Shown: positions 8,138-59,375 of the stretch, one piece after another | Position numbering within the stretch: the first letter of the stretch is position 1 | Layout of the letters: each line of letters opens with the position of its first letter | Origin: a bacterium | GTDB taxonomy: Bacteria > Hydrothermota > Tepidihabitantia > Tepidihabitantales > Tepidihabitantaceae | Direction: 5' to 3' | DNA length: 64,000 nucleotides | Assembly (NCBI GenBank): GCA_035505375.1 | Contig: DATJQV010000081.1 | Span: forward strand, 151,423 to 215,422 | Notes under the pieces: generated by a model | What the model saw: the letters and a program-made list of their open reading frames with translations, nothing else | Told to the model about the DNA's origin: nothing | Databases searched by the model: none | Program-made: the position numbers and the translations under genes

Positions 8138-8380
8138 TCTGTTCCTCCATTCGTACTGCCTGTCTCACACCATCGCATTCCTGCATCGGGACCATGAACA
8201 ACTCAGCGTCCGGAAGCCAGAGGCTGGTCTCCAACCAAGAACCGTAGTATTTCAGAGTTCTGAGCCGTTCATTCTGGACTGTTTGTAGTGGAACGTGAAA
8301 TGTGGCAGCTAGATGACGTAAGGCACTCAAATGTAAGACGATAGTCGATGTGACTCATGAATCAGGATAGCACCTACCGG

Positions 8381-25222: not shown

Positions 25223-25415
25223 GAAGACGGGTATGCAGCGTGTCGGCTGATTGGGCGCTGACCATGGCCTTGATCATTCCAAGGACGGCAGCTTGCGGCG
25301 GTATATAGACACCAGGAATGCAGGAAGCCATCCAGCAAGCTCTTGGACGAACAATCTATGGAGCCTTCTGGCGAGCAGCGGAGCCAGTCCCGACCGGTGC
25401 TGTTGAGGCCGCGCT

Positions 25416-26834
25416 CTAGCGCGTCAGGACCACCTTTCGGACAGCTTGCGCTTGAGCTTCTCGCACGAAGTACACGCCGGGGCTGAGGCGGCTCACGTCA
25501 TTCGCGCCCGCCATCAGGCCCATCACCTTCCGCCCGCTCACGTCCAGCAGGCTTGCGGCTTGTGGCTTGCAGCTTGCGGCTTCCGGAAGGAACAGCGCTC
25601 CGCGAACGACCGTCGTGGCCGGCTTGCGGCTTGAGGCTTGTGGCTTGAGGCTCTCTTCTACCCCTGAGGCGCACAGATAGCTGCCCCAGATCTGCTGGTC
25701 ACTGCTCTGCCATATGCACCAGTGTTCGGTAACACCGACTGTGGTCATGGTCGGGTTGGTCTTCCGCGCGGAGTCGATGCACACCGGAACGTCCTGGCTC
25801 GAGAACATTGTCCGCGAGTAGATATCAGAACCTCCGTTCCGGTTCGACACCCACGCCACCGCAGCCTGATTCCAGGACTCGGTCGTGTACTCGGCCGGAG
25901 TTCCGCAGGGCGTGAAGTTGCTGCCGGCTCCGCTTGAGTCGCACCACCGTCGTCCGACCGAGAACGTGTCCATCGCTGTGCCGTAGACAGCCGTGTCGCC
26001 GTCGCGCGTCGATTCCCATGTAATCCATGGTCCCAAAGCGACCGGCGTCGGGCCGTAGCTTATCACATCGGGATTGCGGTCCAGCGCCGCCGAGTGCGCG
26101 ACCTCCTGCGGCGTCAGCCAGGACCCACTTACGTACTCGCTGTAGAAGATGTCGCCGTGTGTCTCCCAGACGAGCAGCGGGCAACCATAGTAGAGCCCGT
26201 GGTAGCCGCGGCCGAGCCGCGCGTGGCGAATCGTGTCGACCTGGACCACCGCAGCCCGCTGCGTCGTCCACGAATCACCGCCGTTGAACGAATAGTCGAT
26301 GTGCCAGCCGTCCGTATCCTGACAGGTCCAAGTCACCCAGGCCGTGTCGTACGGGCTGCCGTGTCTGATGGCCATCACCTGCGGCCACGTCGAATCGACG
26401 CCGGCAGTTTTGCCGGAACCGACCAGAACCCGTGAACTCCACGCCTGTCCGGCCGTGTCGAATTGCGCGTAGATATCAGCCGTACCGGCGGGGTGCTCCC
26501 AGACGCAGCAGAAAACAGGCCTGCCCGAAGACGCGTCATTAACGCAGGCGACGGCAGGGTTGACTGCAGCCAGGTTTCCGGAGATTAGTGTAGCAGGCCC
26601 CCACCCGTTGCCGTCAGTGAATGAACAGAGCTGACCGAACACTTCCCAGCGGACGCCACTGGCGAAGGACTGCCAGACCATGCACGTCGTGTCACCGAAC
26701 ACCCATTCCTTGCAGGCCGACGGCTTGATGCCGCCGATGCTGTCGCCCAAGAGGAACGGCCCGGTCCAGCCCTGCGCTGCCGCGTGGGGTGGGACTAAAG
26801 CGCAGAGAATCAAAACTATGATGCAGAACCTCAA
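25416..26834 (-). CDS. BNR/Asp-box repeat secreted protein with a C-terminal T9SS/FlgD-Ig-like sorting domain
   Basis: Signal peptide, Trp-rich repeats with S-x-D-x-G-x-T-W boxes (SFNGGDSWT) and a CTD ending ANDVSRLSPGVYFVREAQ...VVLTR. Confidence 0.65.
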   Translation of the reverse strand: MRFCIIVLILCALVPPHAAAQGWTGPFLLGDSIGGIKPSACKEWVFGDTTCMVWQSFASGVRWEVFGQLCSFTDGNGWGPATLISGNLAAVNPAVACVNDASSGRPVFCCVWEHPAGTADIYAQFDTAGQAWSSRVLVGSGKTAGVDSTWPQVMAIRHGSPYDTAWVTWTCQDTDGWHIDYSFNGGDSWTTQRAAVVQVDTIRHARLGRGYHGLYYGCPLLVWETHGDIFYSEYVSGSWLTPQEVAHSAALDRNPDVISYGPTPVALGPWITWESTRDGDTAVYGTAMDTFSVGRRWCDSSGAGSNFTPCGTPAEYTTESWNQAAVAWVSNRNGGSDIYSRTMFSSQDVPVCIDSARKTNPTMTTVGVTEHWCIWQSSDQQIWGSYLCASGVEESLKPQASSRKPATTVVRGALFLPEAASCKPQAASLLDVSGRKVMGLMAGANDVSRLSPGVYFVREAQAQAVRKVVLTR

Positions 26835-26843
26835 GACTCCTCC

Positions 26844-28148
26844 TTACTTTACGACGACAATCCTCCTAACGTCTTCTTGCTCACTACTCATCTCTCCCCG
26901 CTCCCTCACGAAATACACGCCGGGCGCAAGTCGCGACACATCATTCGCGCCGGAGTGCAACTCCGCGACCTTGCGCCCCGCCGCATCCAGGAGGACAGCG
27001 CGGAAAATGGGGACTGTACCGCGCCGAGTCGGACGCAGCCGCTCCGAGGGACTGTCCCCGTTTTCAGCTCGCGGCACAAACAGCACGTTCCTGACGACTG
27101 AGGGCGTTCGCGGCAAGCTGCGGACTCCCAGTTCCCGCGGCGCATCGCTCAATCCCAAAATGCCCATACCGTGAGCTATCCAAATGGCTCCGTGGTCGGA
27201 GTAAGCAATCACGGGTTCATTAAACGTGTCAGTTGTGATATCGCACCTGCCCGGACTTACCGAATCTCGGACGACCGACGTCTCTCCCCCCAGCATTGCG
27301 AACTTGATGCGGCCTGCCCGAGCCCACACGCACTGGACGCCGGCGGGGTTGTTCATGCAGGCCGCGCCGATGGAAGTGACACTGTCCAGCCGCACCCCAT
27401 CGCAGACAAGTTTATCATTCACAGGGTCCATCGCCGACCAGAATGTGTGAATGTAGTCGGAGCCGTCGGCCGCCAACGCGGCAAGGACGCCGCCACCGCC
27501 ATGGATCCCGCCTGCCTCTGTATCTGACGTCCAAACCCCACTGTCTCGCGTGTAGAGACTGACATTGTAAAAGTCAAAGAAACCACCCATGACCCCGTCG
27601 TCACTCTCCATGAACGCGCAATTGCCGTTCCAGCACCAGGTCGGACGGGTGAACGTAATCCACCAGTCCGAGTAGTTGGAGTCGGGAGGGATGACCAAGC
27701 TGGTGTCCCAACCCGAGTCAGTTCTCTGACCGAGGCACACGTTGCCAAGGCTATCCTTGAACATAAGCGATGGCCGACCGGCAAGGTCATAGCTGAAAGC
27801 CACGCCACTCATGGGCATGGGTAGTTGCTCAGATGACCAGACGGAGTCTCTGCGTTCGGCGAGTCGTCCCGATCCCACTACGCCAATCACGTCTCCAGGG
27901 CCGATGTCGAATGAGAACGGGGGTCGAACAAACGCAGTGTCTAAGTCTTCGTACTCCCACACTGTATCCTTGTGGGCAAGCCTGATGGCGGAGTCACGGG
28001 TGAGGTACGCGAGCCAGATCGTCCCGTCACTCGTCTTGTCAATGGCCACGTACGACCCAATGCTCCCGCTATCGACCTGCTCGAATTCCCAGTAGCCGGC
28101 GAGACAGACAGATGCGGTCACGGCAACGACGACGACCAGCGCTCTCAT
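26844..28148 (-). CDS. Secreted T9SS-CTD protein, paralog 1 of 3 in tandem
   Basis: N-terminal signal MRALVVVVAVTASVCLAGYWEFEQVDSGSIGSYVAIDKTSDGTIWLAY. The C-terminal tail is GANDVSRLAPGVYFVRE. Confidence 0.6.
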   Translation of the reverse strand: MRALVVVVAVTASVCLAGYWEFEQVDSGSIGSYVAIDKTSDGTIWLAYLTRDSAIRLAHKDTVWEYEDLDTAFVRPPFSFDIGPGDVIGVVGSGRLAERRDSVWSSEQLPMPMSGVAFSYDLAGRPSLMFKDSLGNVCLGQRTDSGWDTSLVIPPDSNYSDWWITFTRPTWCWNGNCAFMESDDGVMGGFFDFYNVSLYTRDSGVWTSDTEAGGIHGGGGVLAALAADGSDYIHTFWSAMDPVNDKLVCDGVRLDSVTSIGAACMNNPAGVQCVWARAGRIKFAMLGGETSVVRDSVSPGRCDITTDTFNEPVIAYSDHGAIWIAHGMGILGLSDAPRELGVRSLPRTPSVVRNVLFVPRAENGDSPSERLRPTRRGTVPIFRAVLLDAAGRKVAELHSGANDVSRLAPGVYFVRERGEMSSEQEDVRRIVVVK

Positions 28149-28157
28149 TGCATCTCC

Positions 28158-29441
28158 TTACCTGACCACCACGACCCTCCTGACTCCCGCGCGCTCGTGG
28201 CCTACTCCTTCATCTCCCACAAAGTACACGCCCGGCGCAAGTCGCGACACATCGTTTGCGCCTATATGCAGCTCCGCCACTCTGCGCCCCGCCACATCCA
28301 GCAGGGCTGCGGCTTGGAGCTTGTGGTCTGAGGCCTGCGGCAGGAACAGCACGTTCCTGACAATTGAAGGAGCTCGTGCCATACTGCGGACTATCGACTC
28401 CCGCGGCTCATCGGTCAATCCAACGATGCCCACGCCGTGTGCGACCCAGATGGAGCCGTCGCTTCGGCAGAAGGCTATGACCGGCTCAGCCAACTTGTCA
28501 GTCGTGATGTCGCACCAGACGACCCGATCCGCGCCTCCGACGACTTGTGTCGGCTCCCCGAGCAGGACGAACTTGAGGAGGCTGTCACGGGCCCACCATG
28601 CACACTGCACGCGACCGGAGTCGTCCAGGCAGGCCGCGCCGATGCTGGTGCAGGCGTCCAAGACAACGCCGTCGCAGACCAATTCGTCCGCCACGTAGTT
28701 GTCGGCAGCCGACCAGAACGTGTGAATGCTGTCGGAACTGTCAACCAACGCGGCAAGCCCGATTCCTTCGCCGTCGAGCCCGCCCGTTCCGCCGAAGTCT
28801 GTCCAGACGCCGCTATCTCTTCGCTTGAAAGAGACTTCGTAACCGTCTTGCAGGCCCATGCTCCACCAGTCGGCCACAATGAGTGCGCAGTTGCCATTCC
28901 GGCGCCAAGCCGGAGCGGTAATAGTAGCCCACGTCGAGTTTTGTGGGACATAAAAGACATTCGTGTCCCAGGATGGGCCTGTCTTCAGGCCGACGCAGCC
29001 GCGCCCCAAGCTGTCCTTGAAAGTGAGCGACGGCCGGCCTGCCGGGTCATAGCTCATGGACAGACCGTACATGACCATTGGCAGTCGCTCGGACGCCCAG
29101 ACGGAATCTCTGCGTTGGGCGAGCCGACCCAGTCCGACCACGCCGATGGCGCCGTCCGTGCTCACGTCGAAGGAGAACGGGAGGTTGTCACGAAGGAAAT
29201 TCGAAGGGAATATGGGACGAACCAAGGCGGTATCCAGGTCTTGGTACTCCCACACTGAATCCCGGTGGGCGAGCCTGATCGCGGAGTCACGGGTAATGTA
29301 CGCGAGCCAGATGGTCCCGTCGCTCGTCTTGTCAATCGCGACGTACGACCCAATGCTACCGCTGTCTACCTGTTCGAATTCCCAGTAGCCGGCGAGACAG
29401 ACAGATGCGGTCATGGCAACGACGACAACCAACGCTTTCAT
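28158..29441 (-). CDS. Secreted T9SS-CTD protein, paralog 2 of 3
   Basis: Over 60% identical to paralog 1 in the N-terminal 120 aa (MKALVVVVAMTASVCLAGYWEFEQVDSGSIGSYVAIDKTSDGTIWLAYITRDSAIRLAH). Confidence 0.6.
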   Translation of the reverse strand: MKALVVVVAMTASVCLAGYWEFEQVDSGSIGSYVAIDKTSDGTIWLAYITRDSAIRLAHRDSVWEYQDLDTALVRPIFPSNFLRDNLPFSFDVSTDGAIGVVGLGRLAQRRDSVWASERLPMVMYGLSMSYDPAGRPSLTFKDSLGRGCVGLKTGPSWDTNVFYVPQNSTWATITAPAWRRNGNCALIVADWWSMGLQDGYEVSFKRRDSGVWTDFGGTGGLDGEGIGLAALVDSSDSIHTFWSAADNYVADELVCDGVVLDACTSIGAACLDDSGRVQCAWWARDSLLKFVLLGEPTQVVGGADRVVWCDITTDKLAEPVIAFCRSDGSIWVAHGVGIVGLTDEPRESIVRSMARAPSIVRNVLFLPQASDHKLQAAALLDVAGRRVAELHIGANDVSRLAPGVYFVGDEGVGHERAGVRRVVVVR

Positions 29442-29450
29442 TGCATCTCC

Positions 29451-30725
29451 TTACCTGACCACCACGACCCTCCTGACTCCCGCGCGCTCGTGGCCTACTC
29501 CTCCATCTCCCACAAAGTACACGCCCGGCGCAAATCGCGACACATCGTTTGCGCCTATATGCAGCTCCGCCACTCTGCGCCCCGCCGCATCCAGCAGGCT
29601 TGCGGCTTGTGGCTTGCGGCCTGAGGACTGCCGCAGCAACAGGACGTTCCTGACGACTGAGGGAATTCTCGACAGGCTGCTGACTGCCGACTGCTGCGGC
29701 GCATCGCTCAGTGCGGCAACGCCCACCCCGTGGGCGACGTGAATGGAACCGTCGCTCAAGCGGTATGCGATCACGGGCTGTGAAAGTGAATCGGTCGTTA
29801 TGTCACAGCAGGTGATACTGACGCCGCTCAAGACCACCTGTATCGGCTCATGGAGCAAGTCGAACTCCAGCGCATTGTTGCCTACCCATACGCACTGCAC
29901 GCGGCCGGAGCCGTCCAGGCAGGCCGCGCCGATGGAAGTGTAACCGTCCAGTCGCACCCCATCGCAGACAAGTTCATCAGTCCCGTAAGGGTCGCCTGCC
30001 GACCAGAGTGTGTGAATGCTGTCGGAGCTGTCAGCCAACGCCGCAAACCCGCAACCGCCGCCGTCGAGTCCGCCCGCTCCGCCGAAGTCTGTCCAGACAC
30101 CGTTGTCTCGTCGTTTGAGAGAGACGTCGTAACCGTCAATCAAGCCACCCTCGGTCCACACGTCGGCCTCAATGAGTGCGCAGTTGCCGTTCCGGCGCCA
30201 ACCCGGGCGGGTAAGGGAATACGTGTTGCTATCCGTCATGTAGACAACATTCGTATCCCAGGAGGAATCAGTCTTCAGGCCAAGACACCCGCGCCAGAGG
30301 CTGTCCTTGAACGTAAGCGATGGCCGACCGGCCGGGTCATAGCTTAAGGCCGCATCTCTCATGGGCATCGGTAGTTGCTCAGATGACCAGACGGAGTCTC
30401 TGCGTTCGGCGAGTCGTCCCGATCCCACTACGCCCATCACATCTCCAGGCCCGATGTCAAACGAGAAAGGCGGCCGGACGAGCGACGTATCCAAGTCTTC
30501 GTACCACCACCCCGCGTCCGCGTGCGCAAGCCGGATGACGGAATCGCGGTTCTCGTAGGCGAGCCAGATGGTCCCGTCACTCGTCTTGTCAATGGTCACG
30601 TACGACCCAATGCTCCCATTGTCCACCAGTGCGAAGGTCCAATAGCCTGCACGGCAGATGGTCGCGACCGTGGCAATGGCGACCACGGATATTTGAAGAC
30701 GCCGGCAGAAGTCAAACGTTGCCAT
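29451..30725 (-). CDS. Secreted T9SS-CTD protein, paralog 3 of 3
   Basis: The start is taken at MATFDFCRRLQISVVAIATVATICRAGYWTFALVDNGSIGSYVTIDKTSDGTIWLAY. The ORF is open upstream to 30989, probably without meaning. Confidence 0.55.
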   Translation of the reverse strand: MATFDFCRRLQISVVAIATVATICRAGYWTFALVDNGSIGSYVTIDKTSDGTIWLAYENRDSVIRLAHADAGWWYEDLDTSLVRPPFSFDIGPGDVMGVVGSGRLAERRDSVWSSEQLPMPMRDAALSYDPAGRPSLTFKDSLWRGCLGLKTDSSWDTNVVYMTDSNTYSLTRPGWRRNGNCALIEADVWTEGGLIDGYDVSLKRRDNGVWTDFGGAGGLDGGGCGFAALADSSDSIHTLWSAGDPYGTDELVCDGVRLDGYTSIGAACLDGSGRVQCVWVGNNALEFDLLHEPIQVVLSGVSITCCDITTDSLSQPVIAYRLSDGSIHVAHGVGVAALSDAPQQSAVSSLSRIPSVVRNVLLLRQSSGRKPQAASLLDAAGRRVAELHIGANDVSRFAPGVYFVGDGGVGHERAGVRRVVVVR

Positions 30726-30726
30726 C

Positions 30727-31275
30727 CTATTCAAGGTCTTCCTCCTTTGCGGAACGGCGGAGCATCTCAAGCTCTGCGATTTCGGCCTTGAGGAGTTCGT
30801 AGACGTTGTAGACAATCGGGCAGTACGGCAGGTTCCAGAGCGCCATGACGGAATGGGTGGCGAAATCCGGCCTGTACAGGAAGGGAAAGTCGACGCAGGA
30901 CTCGGGCCGGCTGTGGTAGTAGCGGCAGAGTTTGTCCTGAAGAAACGGGCAGGGCTTCTGAGTGGGCACGAACTTCCCCTTCTCCTCAACCTCCTTCAGG
31001 TACGTGTGCGCGAGTACGTCCGGCGTGACACCCACGGCCTGCGCCAGCCGCGCAATATCTCTCCGGCTTAGCGCCGGATACAACTCTCGGCAGCAGTTGG
31101 CACACGTGCGGCAGTCGATTTTCGAGGAGACTATGCCCGACAGACGGTGGACGATGCCGTCGATCTCTTCCGGAGTGATAGAGCAACGTCTGATGTGGAC
31201 ACGAAACGCCTGGTTCTCGGCTTCCTTCTCTTTGGCCAGTTCCAGTATGCGGGCAAGGTCGGTCTCGAGTTTCAT
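30727..31275 (-). CDS. YkgJ-family (UPF0153) Cys-cluster protein
   Basis: CxxCxxCC motif (CRTCANCC) plus additional conserved Cys residues. 182 aa. Confidence 0.65.
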   Translation of the reverse strand: MKLETDLARILELAKEKEAENQAFRVHIRRCSITPEEIDGIVHRLSGIVSSKIDCRTCANCCRELYPALSRRDIARLAQAVGVTPDVLAHTYLKEVEEKGKFVPTQKPCPFLQDKLCRYYHSRPESCVDFPFLYRPDFATHSVMALWNLPYCPIVYNVYELLKAEIAELEMLRRSAKEEDLE

Positions 31276-31504: not shown

Positions 31505-32431
31505 ATGGCGCGCGTCGTTACCATCGTGAATCCGGTCGCGGGCAAGGCCCGAGGGGCGAAGCTGCGCGCCGGGGCAGTCGAGGAGCTGAGGCGGCTCTTT
31601 CCGGATATGGCCATCATGGAGACGAACGCGCCCGGCCACGCGACCGCGCTCGCGCAGGCGGCGAGTGACTCGGAGCTGGTAATCGCGGTCGGCGGGGACG
31701 GAACCGCGCGCGAAGTCGCCTCCGGCCTCCTGCCCTCCACTAGAATGCTCGAATCCTCGACCCCTCGACCCCTTCTCGCTGTCATCCCCGTCGGTTCGTG
31801 CAACGACCTCCCGAAGAACGTCGGCATTCCTGCAGACGTGACTGAAGCCTGCCGGGTTGCCAAGGAGGGCAGGGAGCGTCCAATCGACGTCATCCGAGTT
31901 GAGATGTCGAACGATGCCTCTTCGGCAGTAACGTACTTCGTCAACGCGGCCGGTTTCGGATTCGACGCCACCGTCACGGCCGAGGCGCAGAAGTCAAGGC
32001 ACTTGAGCGGATTGCCGCTGTACCTGGTTGCGGTCATCAGAGCGCTGAGTAACCTGCAATGCCCACTCGTGCGGATTCGTGCGGGCGAGTTTGAGACCGA
32101 GCAGCGCGTCCTGATGATTGCCGCGGCCAACGGTCGGTACTACGGAGGCGGGATGAAAGTAGCGCCCGAGGCAAGACCCGACGACGGGCTTATCGAGGTC
32201 TGCATCGGCTTCAGCATGGGCCGAATCTCGGCTCTGACGAAGCTGCCGCGCTTCGTCGCCGGCACCCACGTGACTCTCAAGGAAGTCAGGATGCTCCGCG
32301 CACCTGAGCTGGACCTCGATTTCCTCGAGCCGGTGAAGATCGAGCTCGACGGCGACGTGCTCTCGCCTCAACCCTACAGGCGTTTCCGCCTGACCGCCCT
32401 GCCCAAGGCCATCAGCATCCGTGTTGCCTGA
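31505..32431 (+). CDS. Diacylglycerol-kinase-family lipid kinase (YegS/DgkA-catalytic domain)
   Basis: IVNPVAGKARG...VIAVGGDGT, the DAGK_cat signature. Confidence 0.75.
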   Translation: MARVVTIVNPVAGKARGAKLRAGAVEELRRLFPDMAIMETNAPGHATALAQAASDSELVIAVGGDGTAREVASGLLPSTRMLESSTPRPLLAVIPVGSCNDLPKNVGIPADVTEACRVAKEGRERPIDVIRVEMSNDASSAVTYFVNAAGFGFDATVTAEAQKSRHLSGLPLYLVAVIRALSNLQCPLVRIRAGEFETEQRVLMIAAANGRYYGGGMKVAPEARPDDGLIEVCIGFSMGRISALTKLPRFVAGTHVTLKEVRMLRAPELDLDFLEPVKIELDGDVLSPQPYRRFRLTALPKAISIRVA

Positions 32432-35396: not shown

Positions 35397-36041
35397 ATGA
35401 AGGGCATCAGGCTCGAACCGGCCCGCAGCCTCCTCGACAACTTCACCCACGCAGAGCTGGCGCGTCTCGTCAGACGGAGCCGGCTCAAGGTTTCCGTCCC
35501 CCGCAGCCGTGCCGCCCTGGCCGACCTGATTACGAAGCATCTGGATCTCGACGGCGTAGTAGAAGAGACCCGCCAGCTTTTCCACACCCGGCGTTCAGCG
35601 CCACGCCGTGCAGCGCACGCGACCCGGCTCGACCAGCTTCCCCCGCTTCACGGAAGCGCCACGGTTCAGGCATACTCGCGTTCCCGGCCACAGCTCGGCC
35701 GGGCACTGCTCGGACGCAGCGACGACTGCATGGCGCTCGGCTTCAATAGTGTGCCGCTTTTCCTTGAGAACCGCTGGCCGGTCGTCGTGCGCGATGTCGG
35801 CCTTGTGCCGCGCTCGCGGCTCTATGCAGCTTTCGTCCGGCCCGGCCGCGTTCACCCTTCGGCTGAGGCCGCGCCGCCCCGGACCAAACCCTATTTGCTG
35901 GACGAAGGCGAGTACCAGCTCCGAAACGGCCGACTCCGGTTCGAGCTGGCACACGCCGGCCCGATTTCCTTCCAAGTGACATTCCTGCGCAAGCGACCGC
36001 CCGCCGGCCGGGCAGAGTATCTTTTCGAACCCATCGTCTAG
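35397..36041 (+). CDS. Hypothetical protein
   Basis: ORF only. The start is taken at MKGIRLEPARS. Confidence 0.35.
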   Translation: MKGIRLEPARSLLDNFTHAELARLVRRSRLKVSVPRSRAALADLITKHLDLDGVVEETRQLFHTRRSAPRRAAHATRLDQLPPLHGSATVQAYSRSRPQLGRALLGRSDDCMALGFNSVPLFLENRWPVVVRDVGLVPRSRLYAAFVRPGRVHPSAEAAPPRTKPYLLDEGEYQLRNGRLRFELAHAGPISFQVTFLRKRPPAGRAEYLFEPIV

Positions 36042-36129
36042 TCATTTTCGATTTCCGCTTGTCGATTTCCGATTGTCCGCCCAGACTTCTGAATTCTGCC
36101 TTCTGGTTTCTGAATTCTGAATCGTCCTG

Positions 36130-36915
36130 ATGGTCGGACTACTCGTCCTCGCCATCGCCCCGGCCGTCGCCCTGTTCCTCTTCTTCTACCTCCGCGACAA
36201 GTACCGAAGAGAACCCATCGGTGTCCTGCTGGTAACGTTCGCGCTGGGCGCCGCCTCACTGGTTCCCGCGGCAATCACGTCGCTCTCGCTTCAGAAGCTC
36301 ACCGGCTGGCGCTCAAGCACCCCCAGCCTGCTCCATGCCTTCCTCGGCGCGATGATTATCGTCGGCCTGGTCGAAGAGGGCGCGAAGTTCATTGTCGTCC
36401 GGTTCTACGCCTACCACCGGCCCGAGTTCGACGAACCCTATGACGGGATAATGTACTCGGTCATGGCCGCGCTCGGCTTTGCCACCCTAGAAAACATCAT
36501 CTACATCTTCTCAAACGGCGCCGGAACCGGCGTGATGCGCGCGCTGCTGGCGATGCCGAGCCACGCCTTCGACGGCGTGCTGATGGGCTACTTCCTCGGC
36601 GAGGCCAAGTTCGCGCGCAACGACCGTGTCGGCAACTGGCTTTCCGCTCTTGGTTTCGGATTGGCAGTCATCGCCCACGGGCTATACGACTTCATTGTTT
36701 TCTCGCTCGACAAGAGGCCGCTGATGGTGCTAAGCCTGCTCACGATGGCGGTTCTATTCTGGGTTATTTTCTTCAAGGCCACTCGGAAACTGTCGGAACA
36801 GTCGCCCTACAAACACCCGCAGCTAGTCGCACTTCGCCGCGACTCGGCCGAAGAGGCGAAGACCGAAGAACATACGGACAACCTACAAGACACAAAGCCA
36901 CCGCAGAAGGGATGA
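36130..36915 (+). CDS. prsW: PrsW-family intramembrane metalloprotease
   Basis: EEGAKF, FATLEN and HGLYD motifs in a multi-pass membrane protein. Confidence 0.75.
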   Translation: MVGLLVLAIAPAVALFLFFYLRDKYRREPIGVLLVTFALGAASLVPAAITSLSLQKLTGWRSSTPSLLHAFLGAMIIVGLVEEGAKFIVVRFYAYHRPEFDEPYDGIMYSVMAALGFATLENIIYIFSNGAGTGVMRALLAMPSHAFDGVLMGYFLGEAKFARNDRVGNWLSALGFGLAVIAHGLYDFIVFSLDKRPLMVLSLLTMAVLFWVIFFKATRKLSEQSPYKHPQLVALRRDSAEEAKTEEHTDNLQDTKPPQKG

Positions 36916-37021
36916 AGGCGGAGGGATGAAGGATGAATTCCGGTTCCGGCCTCCCGGTTCAGCCTTTCCGGTTTCATCGCTTCCTCTTTGTGTCTTGGTG
37001 TCTTTGTGGTGAATCCCGAAA

Positions 37022-37654
37022 CTACTGACCCGCCCGCGAAAACTCCTCGATAGCCGCATCCGACAGTGGGTGATTGCCGAGACTGAGCAGTATGTCCAGC
37101 GGTAGCGTCAGATGATTCGCCCCGGCCACTACGGCCTGCGTGGCCTCATCGGCCGACTTGATACTCGCGGCCAGTATCTCAACACATCTGTCGGACGTCC
37201 TGAGCACCGCCGCCATCTCGGCCACCAGCTTGTTCCCGTCACCAAGTAACCGCGTAGCCCGGTTCACATAGGGAATCACGTAGCGAGCGCCCGCTTCGCA
37301 GGCGACGAGAGTCTGAGCTCCGCTGTAGACAGCGGTAGCGGCACACGGAGTGTCCCGTGAGAGCTTCGCCATCAAAGCCAGGTTCTCGGTTGTGGCAGGT
37401 ATCTTCAGCACGACCTTCTCGCGGCAGATGTCGAAGAACTCCCTGCCCTCGCGCTCCCGCTCTTCCGGCGTCTTTGCCGTCACCTGATAGAACACCGGCC
37501 CAGGCGCAAGTGCGCAGATCTGCCGAATGATGTCTTTCGGCTGCCCCTTCACCTTCGCCATGATGGTCGGGTTCGTGGTCACGCCCGAAAGAAACCCGAG
37601 CTCGACCGCCCGCCTTACTTCCTCAATCTTCGCGCTATCCAGGAATAGTCCCAC
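37022..37654 (-). CDS. fsa: Transaldolase / fructose-6-phosphate aldolase family (short TalC/Fsa type)
   Basis: 210 aa. GVTTNP and a VLKIPAT Schiff-base lysine region. Confidence 0.8.
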   Translation of the reverse strand: MGLFLDSAKIEEVRRAVELGFLSGVTTNPTIMAKVKGQPKDIIRQICALAPGPVFYQVTAKTPEEREREGREFFDICREKVVLKIPATTENLALMAKLSRDTPCAATAVYSGAQTLVACEAGARYVIPYVNRATRLLGDGNKLVAEMAAVLRTSDRCVEILAASIKSADEATQAVVAGANHLTLPLDILLSLGNHPLSDAAIEEFSRAGQ

Positions 37655-37657
37655 TGC

Positions 37658-38815
37658 TCACTCCTTTTCGGTTCGGGTCAAGAAACGTTCGACATGATCC
37701 CGCCTTGGCATGGATGGTTCAGCGCCCATGATGGTGCAGGCGAGAGCGCCGCAGGCGTTGGCGAATCGCACAGCTTCATCAAGGCTGGCACCCTCGGCAA
37801 TTCTCACCGCCAATCCGGCGCGGAACGCATCCCCAGCGCCGGTCGTGTCCACGACGTTCACCTTGTGCGCCGGGAACCGGGTCAGCGCGGCGCGGTCAAC
37901 TGCCAGCGCGCCTTCTTCGCCGAGTGAGATAACCACGCCCTGCCGCGTCTCGGGCAGAAGCACAGCCGCCGCTTCCTCCGGCGTCATCCTGCCGGTCAGC
38001 ATGTGGGCTTCGATTTCGTTGGGCACAAGGTAGTCAAAGTAGAAGTCGTCCAGTGGTCTCGTGGTCGAGTGTTCCGGCATCTCCGTTCTGGAACTCTGGC
38101 TTCTGCCCCCTTCTGTCTGACTTGGTGCCTTTGCGTCTTGGTGGTGAAATCCGTCTCCGCAATTCTGGTTTCTAGTTTCTGGTTTCTGGTCTCTGGTTTC
38201 TCCGTCCGCCTTTGTGTCTTCGTGTCTTTGTGGTGAATCCCCGCAATTCTGGACCCTGGACTCTGGATTCTGGATTCTGGATTCTTCCTGTCCTCCATGC
38301 CTCACCGGCGCAGGGTCGAGCAGCACCAGTGTTCCGTGCTTCCGGGCAATCTCGGCGGCACGCCGCGACGCTGCCAACGGTATCTCGAACTGGAGCATCA
38401 GGATGTCGGCGAGGGCAATCTGCTCCTCTACCGCGAGCACATCCTCGGGCGTCACGCGCATGTTGGCCCGCGGCGCGGCGATGATGCTGTTCTGCCCGTT
38501 CTCGTCCACGACCGGCGTGGCAATCGCGGTTCCCGCCTCAGGGTCGCGGGTCACGCCACTCAGGCAGATTCCTTCCTGCTCCAGCTTGGCGACGAACATG
38601 TCACCGAACGGGTCGCGGCCGACCCGACCGACGATGCACACGTCAGCGCCCAGTCGCCTCGCTCCGACCGCCTGGTTGAACCCCTTGCCGCCGAGGAACA
38701 TACCGAAGTCTTCGGCCAGCATCGTCTCGCCCGGTCCGGGCCGGTGCTTCACTCTAAACATGAGGTCGGTCACGAAGCTCCCGACAACCAGAACGCGAGG
38801 CCGGTCGCCTTTCAT
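37658..38815 (-). CDS. PfkB/ribokinase-family sugar kinase carrying an in-frame insertion of about 75 aa
   Basis: N-terminal GGKGFNQA and C-terminal DTTGAGDAF motifs. Between LDPAPV and DDFYFDYLVPNE, where E. coli RbsK has about 8 residues, lies about 75 aa of low-complexity sequence. It is encoded by heptamer and 35-nt repeats at 38090-38300. Confidence 0.7.
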   Translation of the reverse strand: MKGDRPRVLVVGSFVTDLMFRVKHRPGPGETMLAEDFGMFLGGKGFNQAVGARRLGADVCIVGRVGRDPFGDMFVAKLEQEGICLSGVTRDPEAGTAIATPVVDENGQNSIIAAPRANMRVTPEDVLAVEEQIALADILMLQFEIPLAASRRAAEIARKHGTLVLLDPAPVRHGGQEESRIQNPESRVQNCGDSPQRHEDTKADGETRDQKPETRNQNCGDGFHHQDAKAPSQTEGGRSQSSRTEMPEHSTTRPLDDFYFDYLVPNEIEAHMLTGRMTPEEAAAVLLPETRQGVVISLGEEGALAVDRAALTRFPAHKVNVVDTTGAGDAFRAGLAVRIAEGASLDEAVRFANACGALACTIMGAEPSMPRRDHVERFLTRTEKE

Positions 38816-38830
38816 CTCGTCGCCAGCAGG
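38785..38830. repeat. Direct repeat A (ribokinase start region), partner of 40699-40745
   Basis: caaccagaacgcgaggccggtcgcctttcatctcgtcgcc versus caagcagaacgcgcggccggtcgcctttcatgctgtcgag. Confidence 0.7.
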
Positions 38831-38831
38831 A

Positions 38832-40604
38832 CTATAGCGGCAGCTTCTCCCACTGGAATCTCCGTCGAGCAACGTTCATGCACCTGTCAAACATGGCATT
38901 AGTCCGCAAGAAACTATAGCTCTCTTGGGCGAGCCTCGTCTGATCGTCATTGTTGTTCACAGCTTCAGCGACGATGAATCTCACGCGGGTTGAAGCGACT
39001 TGCTTGAGCCGATCGAGGTAGTTCCCCCGAACGACTAGGTCGTTGCCGTAGCTGTTAGTTAGGTCGTCAAGGTCGTCCGCGTTGAGCACGCCCTGCACCA
39101 CGAGCGCCCAAATGAGATTGCGTGCTCGACCCATGTAGTCGTACTTGTTCTCGCCTCGTTTCACGATTTCCTGCACGACGCTATTCAGTTTCAACTGCAC
39201 CTTGTATAGCAGAATGATCTTCCTGCTGTCCGCCTCTAGGTAGCACTTGCGGAAACAGTCCGAATACTGTTTCTCCTCGCCAAAGACATCCCTGAGCCGA
39301 GACATCCGGTCGGTCTGCCCCTGTATGGCAAGAAACGTCTGCGCCAGCTTCTTGATATCAACGGCCCTGCCAACAGTGACGTCGTACCCCTGGTCCTCGA
39401 GCTCGGAATCCGACAGACTCTCGAATGACTCCTCCTGTCTTTCGTAGAAGAGACGGAGGTCGTCCCTGAGCTTCTCTTGTATGGCGAGCTGAATGTCGTC
39501 GTTTGCCCTGAGATGCCACGGCTCAACCGGGTTCTGCTGGTTGTTTCTGACAGTCACGTTCACCACAAAGTCACGCGAGGCAGCCGATATGAACTTCGCG
39601 ATGACGTGTACGTCCTCAAGGCGGCTGCGGTTACTAACAAGCGCCGCATTGTCTTTGTTGTCATCAACGAACTTCGCCAAGCTCGTGATAGTCTGCGCAC
39701 CATTCAGAAGGCGGGGCTCCACAATGGTCGCCCGACGATCGGCGACCTCGAGAGCCTCGACCGCCAGGGCGACACCGTTGTGGTTGAACGCAAAGACGCT
39801 GGGCTCGTCCCTCTCGGCAAGGACAATGTCCCGAAACGCTGCTCTAAGGGCACGATTTGGGCGCGATTCCGGTGACAGACCCGCTCGAATGTTCCTCTCG
39901 AAGAACCTAAACCCCATCTCACGATACATGCGATAGAGATCCATCAGTCTGACTGTGCCCACATGAAGGCGCTCTCCCGCGGGGCCGACGCATTCTCCAT
40001 GCCAGGGCATGTCGACATCGTACCTGTGGAGTTTTTGGACAGGCGGGGTCCACTTCTTCTTGGTCTGGTTCGAAGCGAACTGGGTGAAGAATTCCACCTC
40101 TCTCCCAAAGAATCCGTTCACGACGTGCCGTTTGTCTTCAAGTTCCTCACGTAAGGCGGTAAGCGTAGGGCTGTTCTCAGCAGCCCTCGCGTCCCCGTTG
40201 AAGACGAACTGAACGATGACGCGATCCACAATAGCCTTGTTCTCGATAATGGCCGACTTGAGTTGTCCGACAAGAGGATTCTGTCTCTCGTCCTGAAGCG
40301 GGTCACCGAATATGCGTTGAATGCCTGCTGAGATCAGACGCCTGAACGATTCTCTGAACAGAGTGTGATTCTCCGACCACTTGAATTGGAACAGATAGAG
40401 ATTCCGTCTTGTCATGTCGAGATGAAACGCGTCGAAGCCGTAGTCATCGCCACCGAATGCCACCTGACAGGCTACCTCCTCGACCGATTGGTAACCATAC
40501 TCCCTCATCAGGTAGAGAACTGCGAAGTAGTCCTCTTTCACGCCACCATAGTGAACTGAGTGTTCTTTGAAGGTTTGGTCGAGTTCTCTCTGCGTGACAA
40601 TCAT
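38832..40604 (-). CDS. Putative abortive-infection / phage-defence protein (AIPR-like), on a lower-GC island
   Basis: 590 aa. The N-terminal GGDDYGFDAF block resembles the G-DDGGIDA motif of AIPR (PF10592) proteins. Hand-counted GC in 60-nt stretches is about 47-55% inside the gene versus 62-68% in its neighbours. The family call rests on memory of that motif and is not verified. Confidence 0.4.
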   Translation of the reverse strand: MIVTQRELDQTFKEHSVHYGGVKEDYFAVLYLMREYGYQSVEEVACQVAFGGDDYGFDAFHLDMTRRNLYLFQFKWSENHTLFRESFRRLISAGIQRIFGDPLQDERQNPLVGQLKSAIIENKAIVDRVIVQFVFNGDARAAENSPTLTALREELEDKRHVVNGFFGREVEFFTQFASNQTKKKWTPPVQKLHRYDVDMPWHGECVGPAGERLHVGTVRLMDLYRMYREMGFRFFERNIRAGLSPESRPNRALRAAFRDIVLAERDEPSVFAFNHNGVALAVEALEVADRRATIVEPRLLNGAQTITSLAKFVDDNKDNAALVSNRSRLEDVHVIAKFISAASRDFVVNVTVRNNQQNPVEPWHLRANDDIQLAIQEKLRDDLRLFYERQEESFESLSDSELEDQGYDVTVGRAVDIKKLAQTFLAIQGQTDRMSRLRDVFGEEKQYSDCFRKCYLEADSRKIILLYKVQLKLNSVVQEIVKRGENKYDYMGRARNLIWALVVQGVLNADDLDDLTNSYGNDLVVRGNYLDRLKQVASTRVRFIVAEAVNNNDDQTRLAQESYSFLRTNAMFDRCMNVARRRFQWEKLPL

Positions 40605-40659
40605 GCGTCCTCCACCTGCGGCCAGTTTCTAGTCTTGTGGATCCATCGTTGCGGCGACC

Positions 40660-40738
40660 TAGGCCGGCGCGGGATCCGCGACAGGACGTCTGTTGTAAAT
40701 CGCCTGACAAGCAGAACGCGCGGCCGGTCGCCTTTCAT
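40660..40738 (-). pseudogene. Duplicated remnant of the ribokinase 5' end
   Basis: The reverse complement reads ATGAAAGGCGACCGGCCGCGCGTTCTGCTTGTC..., giving MKGDRPRVLLVRRFTTDVLSRIPRRP*. The intact gene reads MKGDRPRVLVVGSFVTDLMFRV. The remnant stops after 26 codons. Confidence 0.6.
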
Positions 40739-40784
40739 GCTGTCGAGAGAATACCCGGAATCAGACGACTATCAACCGGCTGAG

Positions 40785-41153
40785 CTACTTGTCCTTATCT
40801 CTGAACAACGCCGACATGATCATGGTGGCGATGCTGACGATGAGCGCGCCAAAGAACGCGGCCCAGAACCCGCGCACGTAGAAGCCGACGTGAAACCAGT
40901 GGACGGCGATGGACGACGACAACCACAGCGTCAGGGCATTGATGACGAGCGTGAACAAACCAAGCGTCAGAATGATGAGCCCGCAGGATAGCAACTTGAG
41001 GACCGGCCTGACGAGCGCGTTGACCAGACCCAGAATGACGGCCATCACCGCATAGATCCACCACGCGTTGGCCGCGACCTTGATGCCCGGCACGATCCAG
41101 GCGGCAAGGAACAAGGCAAGCGCCGCAATCAGCCATCGGATGAGAAGCTTCAC
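40785..41153 (-). CDS. DUF360 / phage-holin-family-4-like small membrane protein
   Basis: 122 aa with 3-4 TM helices and a YvlD/DUF360-like pattern. Confidence 0.55.
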   Translation of the reverse strand: MKLLIRWLIAALALFLAAWIVPGIKVAANAWWIYAVMAVILGLVNALVRPVLKLLSCGLIILTLGLFTLVINALTLWLSSSIAVHWFHVGFYVRGFWAAFFGALIVSIATMIMSALFRDKDK

Positions 41154-41616
41154 GGTTCCTCCCTTGGTAAGCGCCGGCCAGCGCGGTGGCTCAAGTCAGG
41201 CTGCCAGCCGCGCACGCTCGGCGCAAGTCATCTTGGATTGCCACAAGAATACCGACAATCCGCCGGCCATCAAGACGCAGCCACCAGCCTGAATCCGACA
41301 TAGAGACTCACCACAAAGGCACAAAGACACAAAGAGGGTGAGGACGGAAATCGGCTCTGTCTGCTTGGTGTTCTTGGTGTCTTGGTGGTTCAATATCGGG
41401 TTTGGGGCACAAGCTTATGAGAGGCTCGTCTTCGGGCGCAGGGCTAGGCCCCTGATTCCCTCGGACGCACGGAGCATTTGGAAGCCGGTTTTGAGGCAGC
41501 CCGAACCATCCCAGTTTCTTATAAGTCCCCAAGGATTCCGACCCGGAAATCTCCTAACTTATCTCTTTTCAATTCACTATTCACTCTTTCCGTTTCTCCC
41601 CTATCCCATCCCCCCG

Positions 41617-45546: not shown

Positions 45547-45615
45547 CAGGGGATTCGGATAATCCAGAATCCAGAGTCCAGAGCTCAGAATCCAGAATCG
45601 ACGGACGGGACGAGG

Positions 45616-45975
45616 ATGAGGGACTTCCGATCGGACCTGAGCGAACGGCTGCTAGACTTCGCGGTCAGCGTCGTTGCGCTCGCCCCGCGTCTGCAGCGCT
45701 CGGCAACCGGTCGTTTCATGGTGGGGCAACTGGTGCGTTCTGCTTCCTCAGCAGGTGCGAACTTCCATGAAGCTTGTGGTGCCGAAAGCAGAGCCGACTT
45801 CGCACATAAGATGCAGGTGGTCCTCAAGGAATTGCGCGAGACCGAGTACTGGTTGAAGCTGGTCACGCGGGCAAAACTGCTTCCGACCGATCTGCTGTCG
45901 GAACCATTGGCTGAGGCGGACGAGTTGATCAGAATCGTGGTGAAGTCCGTTGTCACTGCCAAGTCGAGACCCTGA
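45616..45975 (+). CDS. Four-helix-bundle protein (PF05635 family), copy 2
   Basis: FAVSVVALAPRL...VRSASSAGANFHEACGAESRADFAHKMQVVLKELRETEYWL. Confidence 0.7.
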   Translation: MRDFRSDLSERLLDFAVSVVALAPRLQRSATGRFMVGQLVRSASSAGANFHEACGAESRADFAHKMQVVLKELRETEYWLKLVTRAKLLPTDLLSEPLAEADELIRIVVKSVVTAKSRP

Positions 45976-46041
45976 TGTCGGGTTTGTCAATTCTGGGTTC
46001 TAGTCTCTGGATTCTGAATTCTGGACTATCCGGAGTCCGCC

Positions 46042-47259: not shown

Positions 47260-48013
47260 AGCGACCAGGGATGAGGGACTAGGGGCTAGGGGTCAGGTTT
47301 CGGACCCTGACCCCCAACCCCTGACCCCTGACCCCTCGGTCGTGCTCCGCGCGACCGACGTATGGCGCGTGTTCGAGACCGGGGCTGAGCGTCTGGAAAT
47401 CCTCCGCGGCGTGAACCTGGAGGTCAGCCGAGGCGAGCTGGTGGCGATTCTCGGCCCTTCGGGAACCGGCAAATCTACCCTCCTGCACGTGCTCGGAGCG
47501 CTGGATCGCCCCACAAGAGGCCGAGTGTTCCTTGATTCAGCTGACGTTTTCAGCTACCCTGAGTCCAAGCTCCACGAACTGAGAAATCGGAAGCTCGGGT
47601 TCGTGTTCCAGTTTCACCACTTGCTGTCCGAGTTCACGGTTCTGGAGAACGTGGCAATGCCGCTGCTTGTTGCGGGCGTGGCTCGGCCCGAGGCGATGGA
47701 CCGTGCGCACCGCGTGCTCGAGGACGTCGGATTCCTGACCCGGCTCACCCACCGGCCGTCCGAGCTATCGGGCGGAGAAAAGGCGCGGGCGGCAGTGGGA
47801 CGCGCGCTGGTGAATAACCCGGCGGTGATTCTCGCCGACGAGCCGACCGGCAACCTCGACACGACCTCGGCGGCGGCGCTGGTTGACCTGATGGTGCGAC
47901 TGAGCAGCGAAAGGAAAATGACGATTCTGGTAGTGACTCACAATCAGTCCGTCGCCGACCGAGCGACACGCCGGCTCCATCTAGCCGAAGGAAGACTCAC
48001 GGAGGAGAGGTGA
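47252..48013 (+). CDS. lolD: Lipoprotein-release ABC transporter ATP-binding protein LolD
   Basis: Walker A GPSGTGKST, LSGGE signature and ILADEPTGNLD. ATGA overlap with lolE. The first 30 codons run through a GGGGYTA/GGGGTCA heptamer element. An alternative GTG start lies at 47342. Confidence 0.8.
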   Translation: MSEATRDEGLGARGQVSDPDPQPLTPDPSVVLRATDVWRVFETGAERLEILRGVNLEVSRGELVAILGPSGTGKSTLLHVLGALDRPTRGRVFLDSADVFSYPESKLHELRNRKLGFVFQFHHLLSEFTVLENVAMPLLVAGVARPEAMDRAHRVLEDVGFLTRLTHRPSELSGGEKARAAVGRALVNNPAVILADEPTGNLDTTSAAALVDLMVRLSSERKMTILVVTHNQSVADRATRRLHLAEGRLTEER

Positions 48014-48116
48014 CAAAGCAGAAATCAGGATTCAGATACCAGAATGCAGAACTGCCGGACTTTCTGACTTCTGGTCTCTGTTCTCTGAATTCTGAATTAT
48101 CCGGAGTGTCCGGGCT

Positions 48117-49743: not shown

Positions 49744-51260
49744 GGCAGAAGGGGTCAGGGGTCAGGGGTCAGGGGTCAGAAGCTGGAAGTCAGAATAAGC
49801 AGACCGGACTGCGCGGACTTCCGTCGGTGGACAAACTTCTCAGTGACGAGACGCTCGCGCCCGTGCTCGCGCAAGTCCACCGCCGCATGGCGGTGCGGGC
49901 AATCCGAGCCTATCTCGACGAGCTACGGGAGAACCTGAAAGAGCCGCAACACGCAGACGGCAAGCCCCAAGCGTTCTCAATGGCGGAGTTGCTGCGCCGA
50001 CTCGAACGAGAGCGCAAGCCGACGCTGGCGCGCGCCATCAATGGCCTTGGCGTCATTCTGCACACTGGGCTGGGGCGCGCGCCGCTGTCCAAGGCTGCAC
50101 AGGAAGCGCTTACTGACGTGAGCGAGCACTTCTCCAGCCTTGAAATCGACATCGAGACCGGACGGCGCGGCAGCCGCTACCGGCACATCGAACCGCTGCT
50201 GTGCGAACTGACGGGCGCTGAGGCGGCGATGGTCGTCAACAACAACTGCGCGGCTACCTTGCTAATCCTGTCCGGGCTGGCCAAAGGCAAAGAGGCGATT
50301 GTCTCGCGCGGCCAGCTTGTCGAAATCGGCGGCGCGTTCCGAATCCCCGACGTGATGATGCAAAGCGGATGCAAGATGGTCGAGGTCGGCACGACCAATC
50401 GCACTCACCTGCGCGACTACAATAATGCCATCACTCCGGAGACGGCGCTCCTGCTCCGGGTTCACACCTCCAACTACAAGATTACCGGGTTCACCAAGGA
50501 AGTAAGCCTCGAAGAGATGGTAGCTCTCGCCCAAGAGGTCAATCGCTCGCCCCTCGCCCCTCGCCCCTCGCCCCTCCTCGTCGTGGACGACCTCGGTTCA
50601 GGGGCGCTCGTCGACCTTTCGAAGTACGGCCTGCCCAAGGAACCGCTGGTACAGGAATCGGTCAAGGCCGGAGCGGACGTCATCTGCTTCTCCGGGGACA
50701 AACTCATTTCCGCGTCGCAAGCCGGCATCATCGTCGGCAAGAAGAAGCACATCGACCTGCTGAAGAAGCATCCGCTCACCCGGGCCATGCGCTGCGGCAA
50801 GCTCACCTACGCCGTGCTCGAACGGACACTGGAGCTGTTCCTTGACGAGGAACGCGCAGTCAAGGAACATGCGCTCTTCCAGTTACTGCTGAAGACCACG
50901 GACCAGATGCAGGGCGAAGCCGATGAACTCGTGCGCCGGGTTCAGTCTCTTCTCCCTCTCCCTCTCCCTCCGGGAGAGGGTTGGGGTGAGGGCGACAACG
51001 TCGTGGCCAAGTTCACCGTCAGACCTGCTCTTTCCGAAATCGGCGGCGGCTCACTCGCGACCGAGAGCCTCGAATCGCGGGTAGTTGCCATCACGCCGAA
51101 GACGATGCATGTCGACGAGCTGGCCCGTCGCATGCGTCTCAATCGGCCCCCGGTGTTCGGCCGGGTCGAAAAGGGCGAATACCTGCTCGACTTCCGTACC
51201 CTCCGCCGCGACGAAATCCCCATTATCTCTTCCGCGCTCCTCTCCGCTTTCCAGCAGTAG
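49740..51260 (+). CDS. selA: L-seryl-tRNA(Sec) selenium transferase SelA
   Basis: PLP fold with the lysine in FSGDKL. A GTGA overlap with the mcsB stop. The N-terminus and two internal sites contain heptamer or palindromic insertions. Confidence 0.75.
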   Translation: MRQKGSGVRGQGSEAGSQNKQTGLRGLPSVDKLLSDETLAPVLAQVHRRMAVRAIRAYLDELRENLKEPQHADGKPQAFSMAELLRRLERERKPTLARAINGLGVILHTGLGRAPLSKAAQEALTDVSEHFSSLEIDIETGRRGSRYRHIEPLLCELTGAEAAMVVNNNCAATLLILSGLAKGKEAIVSRGQLVEIGGAFRIPDVMMQSGCKMVEVGTTNRTHLRDYNNAITPETALLLRVHTSNYKITGFTKEVSLEEMVALAQEVNRSPLAPRPSPLLVVDDLGSGALVDLSKYGLPKEPLVQESVKAGADVICFSGDKLISASQAGIIVGKKKHIDLLKKHPLTRAMRCGKLTYAVLERTLELFLDEERAVKEHALFQLLLKTTDQMQGEADELVRRVQSLLPLPLPPGEGWGEGDNVVAKFTVRPALSEIGGGSLATESLESRVVAITPKTMHVDELARRMRLNRPPVFGRVEKGEYLLDFRTLRRDEIPIISSALLSAFQQ

Positions 51261-57362: not shown

Positions 57363-57410
57363 GATTGGGGCTAGGGGTTAGGGAATAGGGGTTAGAGAGG
57401 ACACGGGAGG

Positions 57411-57791: not shown

Positions 57792-57800
57792 CCCTAGTCC

Positions 57801-59349: not shown

Positions 59350-59375
59350 TCGTTCCTCGCCCTGACCCCTGGCCC

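Follow-up and report, generated by a model that had tools for sequence, protein, structure and literature searches.

Rickettsia palindromic elements (RPEs) are selfish dispersed repeats that are found in frame within genes for metabolic proteins (PMC10969869). Each is a palindromic unit of about 100-150 bp whose translation is a peptide specific to its family. Heptanucleotide repeats have been described as TAACTGA arrays upstream of start codons in Beggiatoaceae, Cyanobacteria and Bacteroidetes (PMC4679880) and as GGGAATC and GGGGA(C/T)T units in Xanthomonas and Nostoc (PMC4692102), and both groups were described as rare in coding regions. Here we analyzed a 64,000-nt stretch of DNA (GenBank assembly GCA_035505375.1, contig DATJQV010000081.1, positions 151,423 to 215,422; hereafter the window) from an uncultured WOR-3 bacterium of a high-GC clade (61% GC), in which a gene for a PfkB ribokinase carries an in-frame insert made of 7- and 8-nt tandem repeats. 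The reading we consider most likely is that this is neutral or slightly deleterious repeat DNA tolerated in a surface loop of the enzyme. A first-pass annotation, made from the letters of the window, had reported a 210-nt repeat insert in this gene; the in-frame insert was real, but measured 234 nt, or 78 amino acids (aa).

The kinase matched PF00294 at 1.2e-60, with the match broken into two stretches, and Pfam gave only PfkB and Phos_pyr_kin for the whole protein, the insert region included. Ribokinases in the PDB aligned with residues 8-172 and 261-379 (best 6znx and 8cqx at 4e-57), and the predicted structure had E. coli ribokinase 1rka as its top Foldseek match (target-normalised TM 0.89); ribose is assumed to be the substrate by homology. 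The gene lies in an operon-like row with a transaldolase gene (37022-37654). Limits of the insert were drawn against insert-free orthologues and solved ribokinases. The loop has 13 residues in the solved structures and in about half of the orthologues, with a further 78 in the window kinase, and in the PDB sequence alignment 88 residues of the query stand where 6znx has 10. The insert is located between the strand LLDPAP and the short helix preceding the NXXE motif, matching the first-pass placement between the LDPAPV region and downstream kinase sequence; its length is a multiple of three.

Two layers were distinguished in the insert: an older cassette, comprising a heptamer run (H1) that ends in CAGAATTGC and an octamer run of GACCACTN, and an additional block of 162 nt (38081-38242). 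In an alignment of orthologous DNA, H1 and the octamer tail were common to many WOR-3 orthologues, and the tail (38042-38080) replaces the short helix that precedes the NXXE motif. The block, consisting of nested units 1 and 2, is a clean window-specific addition between CAGAATTGC and ATGCCGG; unit 1 is absent in loci L031, L034, L040 and L001. Unit 1 aligned over its full length with an intergenic spacer at 36931-37020 and is flanked on each side by CCAGAATTGCGG, which could be a duplication or recombination junction. The motif TTTGYGTCTTSGTGKTGAATCC (three mismatches or fewer) was found at 38130 and 38219, with a spacer copy at 36995, and gave no matches in 100 dinucleotide-preserving shuffles. 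Heptamer runs follow the motif copies (TTCTGGT x5.6 at 38163-38201 and ATTCTGG x5.7 at 38246-38285), and both runs are preceded by GCAATTCTGG. Two motif copies with these accompaniments, made of the material that fills intergenic spacers, were what the first-pass annotation had described; its account of the makeup needed refining in that only the 162 nt are specific to this genome, whereas the remaining repeat DNA is of the same dispersed type and belongs to the older, shared cassette.

The sense strand of the insert contains 20 T in 234 nt, and two of the three sense frames are free of stop codons from composition alone, so that the informative feature is the length divisible by three and not the open frame. 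Because the purine-rich, T-poor strand is sense, the encoded residues are hydrophilic with almost no stops: the peptide is composed of Q, E, S, G, R, T and D, whereas the opposite strand would give hydrophobic residues and stops. Predicted tryptic peptides of the insert region are VQNCGDSPQR, NQNCGDGFHHQDAK and APSQTEGGR, and the peptide from TEMPEHSTTRPLDDF would run into the kinase. A protein search with a 68-aa insert peptide returned no scorable matches. Rfam gave no family at the repeats, either over the whole window at the gathering threshold or in an E-value scan of 35900-41600, the only hit being a tRNA at 20259. Miniature inverted-repeat transposable elements carry terminal inverted repeats and a target-site duplication. 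The insert lacks terminal inverted repeats, the CCAGAATTGCGG on either side of unit 1 could be a duplication, and the related locus L093 holds an inverted pair of heptamer runs. Inteins contain a HINT domain of at least about 130 aa, begin with Cys or Ser and end at a His-Asn junction followed by Cys, Ser or Thr; the insert is only 78 aa of low complexity, with no HINT domain in Pfam and no folded domain in the structural model.

Compared with the systems described above, the window insert is an analogue of RPEs in outcome and not a member of that family. Both have intergenic copies as well as in-frame copies in unrelated metabolic enzymes, at surface positions compatible with the fold and in host genes under selection. 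Unlike RPEs, the insert consists of direct 7-/8-nt arrays of variable unit sequence, units 1 and 2 being direct and not inverted repeats. Its RNA showed neither palindrome nor long hairpin in the two stretches folded: sense RNA of 38155-38300 was less structured than its shuffles (-16.8 kcal/mol, z = +1.92), and 38075-38160 gave z = +0.40. As the insert is not palindromic, the parallel with RPEs drawn in the first-pass annotation stands for the in-frame outcome and not for the type of element. An RPE-like inverted, hairpin-forming pair was found in only one related kinase (L093), the host lineage is WOR-3 and not Rickettsia, and, judged by lineage and composition, homology to the RPE family is unlikely. 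With the published heptamer repeats the window shares arrays of three to six units in short spacers, often a few nt from start codons, as well as indels in 7-nt steps and lineage-specific over-representation of heptanucleotide arrays of at least three units. It differs from them in its many coexisting units, in having octamers too, and in its in-frame arrays in the middle of enzyme domains. Low-complexity inserts also occur in conserved enzymes of some eukaryotes, such as Plasmodium, mostly as triplet (codon) repeats and in genomes rich in AT. Those inserts likewise form hydrophilic, disordered and fast-evolving loops in conserved housekeeping proteins, driven by a genome-wide propensity for repeats; the window differs in its units of 7-8 nt, its bacterial host of 61% GC and the presence of its modules between genes. 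No paper on in-frame 7-/8-nt arrays in WOR-3 enzymes was found, with literature coverage that was incomplete and novelty therefore unproven.

The enzyme looks functional, and the sequence comparisons point to ordinary purifying selection on its gene. AlphaFold (35-sequence alignment) produced a confident ribokinase fold in which residues 171-252, between the strand at 163-167 and the helix at 254-257, had pLDDT below 50. In the model the insert is therefore disordered, in a surface loop of an otherwise ribokinase-like fold, which agrees with the loop position that the first-pass annotation had asked to be mapped. GGKG with its GG dipeptide (residues 42-45), PNEIE and DTTGAGDAF are all present, and their columns were invariant in the kinase alignment (A1). 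For the flanking kinase sequence, the median ratio of nonsynonymous to synonymous substitution rates (dN/dS) was 0.157 in insert-free pairs, 0.149 in insert-bearing pairs and 0.145 in mixed pairs. Orthologous loci were collected at the DNA level by peptide patterns upstream of the insert, a procedure that would also catch broken genes, and in all 21 insert-bearing loci the distance from DPAP to PNE was divisible by three. Nine lengths were observed (111, 114, 126, 132, 135, 141, 147 and 174 nt, and 294 nt in the window). One locus (L040) was shorter by exactly three heptamers (21 nt), and two homologues (P0009 and P0021) were shorter by 8 aa, equal to three octamers. Intact motifs, a dN/dS near 0.15 with or without the insert, a frame kept in every locus and a confident fold together argue that the kinase is not dead; between the two outcomes that the first-pass annotation had left open, these data favor a tolerated loop over an inactivated gene.

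Of 120 close homologues, 61 had the canonical 13-residue loop (VEHGFERFAAPID) and 59 a cassette, a survey of orthologues that the first-pass annotation had suggested. Cassettes could be typed by their units: ESRIQNPESRIQNC is encoded by GAATCCA, EVRSQNADTRSQN by GAAGTCA and RSLDPSIPSS by the octamer GATCCCTC, with EVRSQSTEARVQSS as a further type. Every type is followed by the octamer-encoded tail xxDHSTTRPLDHF. By these comparisons, the presence or absence of a cassette is uncoupled from kinase phylogeny: mean core identity was 0.81 among insert-free kinases, 0.80 among insert-bearing ones and 0.80 across the two classes, and in sliding windows differentiation between the classes was about zero along the gene, but 0.16 immediately 3' of the cassette. 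Similarity of cassettes was likewise uncorrelated with that of backbones (r = -0.11), as in L003 and L004, whose cassettes are 92-93% identical on backbones of 65% identity. A neighbour-joining tree of 115 kinases was star-like and poorly resolved, and pairwise and sliding-window statistics were relied on in its place.

The closest pair of homologues comprised one kinase with a 27-aa insert (P0040) and one with none (P0091), which share 99.7% identity apart from the loop. The respective contigs (L084 and L085) have the same gene order and about 99.8% identity over 14 kb, and differ at the loop by a replaced 135-nt patch (L084 6175-6310) with seven substitutions clustered in 27 nt downstream. 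Such a pattern is what a short tract recombined in from a diverged donor leaves behind, the evidence for recombination being this one very close pair together with the population-level statistics. Within species of the clade and across them, alleles with and without the cassette have therefore been exchanged, or else maintained as a polymorphism of long standing. The uncoupling of cassette and phylogeny is the unexpected result of this analysis, and exchange among near-identical genomes was beyond the reach of a single sequence. A silent donor was not found in the 64-kb window, which holds no insert-free cassette and only a relic of a kinase 5' end (40661-40738). When the cassette k-mers of each orthologue were tested for enrichment in its own, short flanking DNA, the same k-mers also turned up in loci of genomes that lack the insert. 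Near-identical genomes that differ at the loop cassette offer a natural experiment on how an alpha/beta kinase fold tolerates a disordered insertion beside its NXXE motif. The state of the cassette does not follow the gene tree, which makes it a means of studying short-tract recombination, and the behavior of repeat DNA in populations, for a phylum without cultured members. A second cluster of substitutions between the two contigs lies near a contig end (L084 241-322) and may be another recombination patch. At L084 4571, a 1-nt indel relative to L085 splits a 538-aa gene in L084.

Repeats of this kind are a property of the clade. Across 0.95 Mb of collected loci, arrays of period 7 or 8 made up the most numerous class of repeats, and period 7 was the commonest class found by TRF (167 of 775 arrays). 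Their density was 2-6 per 10 kb in WOR-3 relatives of 60-65% GC (4.5 per 10 kb in the window) and near zero in loci of other WOR-3, Marinimicrobia and Chloroflexi, some of similar GC. The repeats are dispersed in multiple copies, between genes as well as in frame within them: copies of the octamer-run motif lie at 36983, 38121, 38210, 41305 and 41356, short-spacer heptamer arrays are found at 36087, 45561, 45990, 48062, 49750 and 57367, and heptamer runs end 8-20 nt upstream of the ATGs at 36130, 45616, 46042 and 48117. Further in-frame runs lie inside Pfam domains of other enzymes (Table 1). The lipid kinase has an octamer run at one site in three genomes, with different units, and none in L058 or PDB 4wrr; in SelA, heptamer runs occur at the site of the window in 4 of 121 orthologues, with three different units. 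At both sites the majority of orthologues have no run. Within the kinase family itself, a second loop holds in-frame heptamer modules after EAHML (P0114 and P0105), and a third has a module between AVDR and RFPA (P0107), a 38-aa in-frame insert made of an inverted pair of heptamer runs that folds as a hairpin (L093 975-1075). One homologue (P0096) has three tandem 57-nt units with the octamer motif at the main site. For annotation, the consequence is that gene callers see overlong genes or split domains, and that repeat spacers upstream of genes inflate predicted N-termini.

Taken together, the data make it probable that the insert is translated, low-complexity and disordered filler from the 7-/8-nt tandem-repeat modules of the clade, and the loop probably contributes nothing to catalysis. 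In many species the older cassette would have settled between LLDPAP and the helix that precedes NXXE, and the window genome would then have gained two copies of the heptamer-linker-octamer unit, known also from intergenic spacers, exactly past the terminal CAGAATTGC of the heptamer run. Since the nested block abuts the conserved end of H1 exactly and has CCAGAATTGCGG at its boundaries, its likely route of entry was ectopic recombination or template switching between repeat copies, with replication slippage creating and altering the modules. An addition would survive only if its T-poor strand is the sense strand, its length is a multiple of three and it falls in a loop, as purifying selection on the kinase would purge all other lengths; slippage is then visible only as changes of three units at a time (21 or 24 nt). 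Short-tract homologous recombination would move alleles with and without cassettes, and the different cassette types, between strains and species. The usual view is that non-triplet arrays have no place in the interior of coding regions, whereas here they sit stably within essential-type enzymes where strand and total length suit translation. Several observations weigh against this interpretation. Same-type cassettes (82-92% identical DNA) are more conserved than third positions of the backbone (50-66%), which exceeds what is expected of neutral filler unless the cassettes spread recently or are constrained at the DNA or RNA level. The HSTTRPLDHF tail is conserved across cassette types, and part of the insert may thus be structurally needed. 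Presence in about half of the orthologues is high for slightly deleterious DNA. Both enzyme activity and translation through the insert, which we infer, are deduced from sequence. All sequences are consensus contigs from metagenomes, which would hide minority frameshifted variants, and the L084/L085 swap could in principle reflect a chimeric assembly path, though this is unlikely.

Of the alternatives, the one with the most in its favor, though still unlikely, is that the cassette is selected for, either as a disordered loop serving kinase regulation, interaction or localisation or as a signal in DNA or RNA, with the two allelic states held by balancing selection. Conservation of same-type cassettes beyond synonymous sites, the shared tail and the occurrence of both states within one population speak for such a role, as do the unusually unstructured mRNA, as for a single-strand binding platform, and the heptamer runs that shortly precede start codons. 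Insert-free alleles are, however, equally constrained in an essentially identical background, units differ wholly between types (GAATCCA, GAAGTCA and GATCCCTC), similar material sits at arbitrary loops of unrelated enzymes, and Rfam has no matching family. More speculative than the filler interpretation, yet a possibility we would entertain tentatively, is that the 7-/8-nt modules with their defined ends (CAGAATTGC) are transposase-free selfish DNA that colonises loops of housekeeping enzymes in frame and, in the form of short cassettes that recombine, spreads from one WOR-3 strain or species to another. If so, multi-allelic presence/absence polymorphisms would be expected at fixed sites in many genes (kinase, SelA and lipid kinase among them), and protein loops would evolve by a mechanism unlike that of RPEs or of codon-repeat expansion.

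A contingency locus, in which the gain or loss of one or two 7- or 8-nt units by slippage toggles the kinase off and on, is improbable. The insert does share with such loci non-triplet tandem repeats within a reading frame (four to six copies) and slippage as the mutational process, and copy number has changed during evolution. It differs in that its changes preserve the frame, with no frameshifted allele among the 21 loci, as far as consensus contigs tell; its units are imperfect, which lowers the rate of slippage; three assemblies of the window genome are identical; and the host gene, which shares an operon with transaldolase, encodes a housekeeping sugar kinase and is neither a surface nor a restriction-modification gene. 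Still less probable is a pseudogene, or a gene translated as two separate halves with a restart at the ATG of MPEH. A GGAG at the 3' end of the nested block precedes this ATG, and 78 aa near the NXXE motif could be disruptive. The GGAG directly abuts the ATG with zero spacing, however, the Met is missing from most cassette types (which have ALDH, TLDH or SGH there), and the intact catalytic motifs, frame and dN/dS set out above are at odds with decay. An assembly artefact, that is a chimeric join at a dispersed repeat, had been named in the first-pass annotation as what might undo its claim, and we regard it as the least credible explanation of all. This repeat family does break assemblies, as a Logan contig terminates at 41335 within an octamer-run copy. 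The same 385-aa protein is nevertheless encoded by 100% identical DNA in a 353-kb contig of a metagenome-assembled genome, a 5.6-kb ENA/JGI contig and the 3.9-kb Logan contig, so that a chimeric join is very unlikely; cassettes also occur at the same site in orthologues of many samples, and the block is an exact multiple of three with clean junctions.

Table 1. Coordinates of the kinase gene, its insert and related repeats in the window
Feature	Position	Strand	Basis
PfkB ribokinase gene, 385 aa, start MKGDRPRV	37658..38815	-	Pfam, PDB and Foldseek matches
Whole insert relative to insert-free orthologues, residues 175-252, 234 nt/78 aa, T-poor sense strand, hydrophilic	38060..38293	-	
Heptamer run H1, GAATCCA x about 6, ending CAGAATTGC, translated EESRIQNPESRVQNC; older cassette	38243..38287	-	
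Nested unit 1, 84 nt: octamer-run motif GGGGATTCACCACAAAGACACGAAGACACAAAG, linker, GAAACCA heptamer run ending CAGAATTGC	38159..38242	-	
Nested unit 2, 78 nt: degenerate motif copy (GGATTTCACCACCAAGACGCAAAGGCACCAAG) and decayed heptamer run	38081..38158	-	
Octamer run GACCACTN x4, translated MPEHSTTRPLDDF; conserved tail of older cassette	38042..38080	-	
NXXE motif (PNEIE), intact, residues 265-269, close downstream of insert	38009..38023	-	
DTTGAGDAF catalytic and anion-hole motif, GAGD with catalytic Asp, intact, residues 323-331	37823..37849	-	
Intergenic heptamer-linker-octamer composite unit, between PrsW and transaldolase	36931..37020	+	Repeat families D14, D20
Two octamer-run motif copies, inverted orientation, intergenic, z = -2.0	41305..41394	.	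I6, I13, D14
In-frame 8-nt-type run in DAGK/YegS-type lipid kinase domain	31743-31773		Pfam domain
In-frame heptamer-type run inside SelA domain	50546-50576		Pfam domain
In-frame 7- or 8-nt run inside saccharopine dehydrogenase domain	52236-52270		
In-frame 7- or 8-nt run inside NAD-dependent epimerase domain	12975-13034		
G-/C-rich heptamer spacer runs	49750-49779, 57367-57395, 47305-47336, 57792-57823, 59360-59396		

Upstream of the intact kinase, an AIPR (abortive-infection type) gene (38832-40604, minus strand) lies between it and the kinase 5' relic, which spans 26 codons with 62% aa identity. In orthologous loci a holin-like gene is directly followed by the kinase, with no AIPR gene between them, and for this reason the AIPR gene looks like an insertion that duplicated or carried along the kinase start. 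An antisense open reading frame at 38297-38902, starting just past the heptamer run, was rejected, as its ATG complements a His codon that is CAC in other orthologues. The octamer-run motif TTCACCACAAAGACACRAAGACAC forms an inverted pair between divergent genes at 41305-41394. It was also found in five IMG/VR contigs (L096-L100; 53-69% GC), often as inverted pairs, and may be shared far beyond the WOR-3 clade. Runs of GAATCCA in 71 viral contigs came mostly from one unrelated sample of about 53% GC and were uninformative. A second SelA loop, after RRVQAKLAGK (P0121-P0134), holds unrelated low-complexity cassettes (LPPGEGWGEGDNVV, GTVPRAERSGGLSQIF and AGTVPDCGASSAGDRPPPATSDRVPSSV), resembling the multi-allelic behavior of the kinase loop.

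Inverted heptamer pairs were predicted to fold as hairpins in an intergenic spacer of the window (48018-48098; -31.6 kcal/mol, z = -3.3) and at L093 975-1075 (-44.1 kcal/mol, z = -2.9). Heptamer runs in inverted orientation (45561-45599 and 45990-46025, 84% complementary) enclose a gene for a 119-aa four-helix bundle (Pfam 23S_rRNA_IVP, 45616-45975) in the manner of a small cassette, of which no second copy was present in the collected loci. Heptamer runs of GGCTTGC and CGTCCCT occur in frame at 25550-25652, 29597-29620 and 61978-62005, just before the sorting-domain-like C-terminal tails (…VRGALFLP…LLDVSGRKV…) of tandemly duplicated secreted proteins. G-rich heptamer runs (AGGGGTC and GGGGTTA) and their C-rich complements fill very short intergenic spacers; their four successive G-tracts could form G-quadruplexes, by analogy with those reported for the repeats of Xanthomonas and Nostoc (PMC4692102). 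About 22 copies of a 12-nt unit (AGTGACTTGCCG) lie at 24915-25223, with a partly complementary array 16.5 kb away (8377-8442). Four tandem paralogous genes occupy 25416-30989 (repeat families D3-D18), and a 126-nt coding repeat with at least 12 copies (62485-64000) continues past the end of the window.

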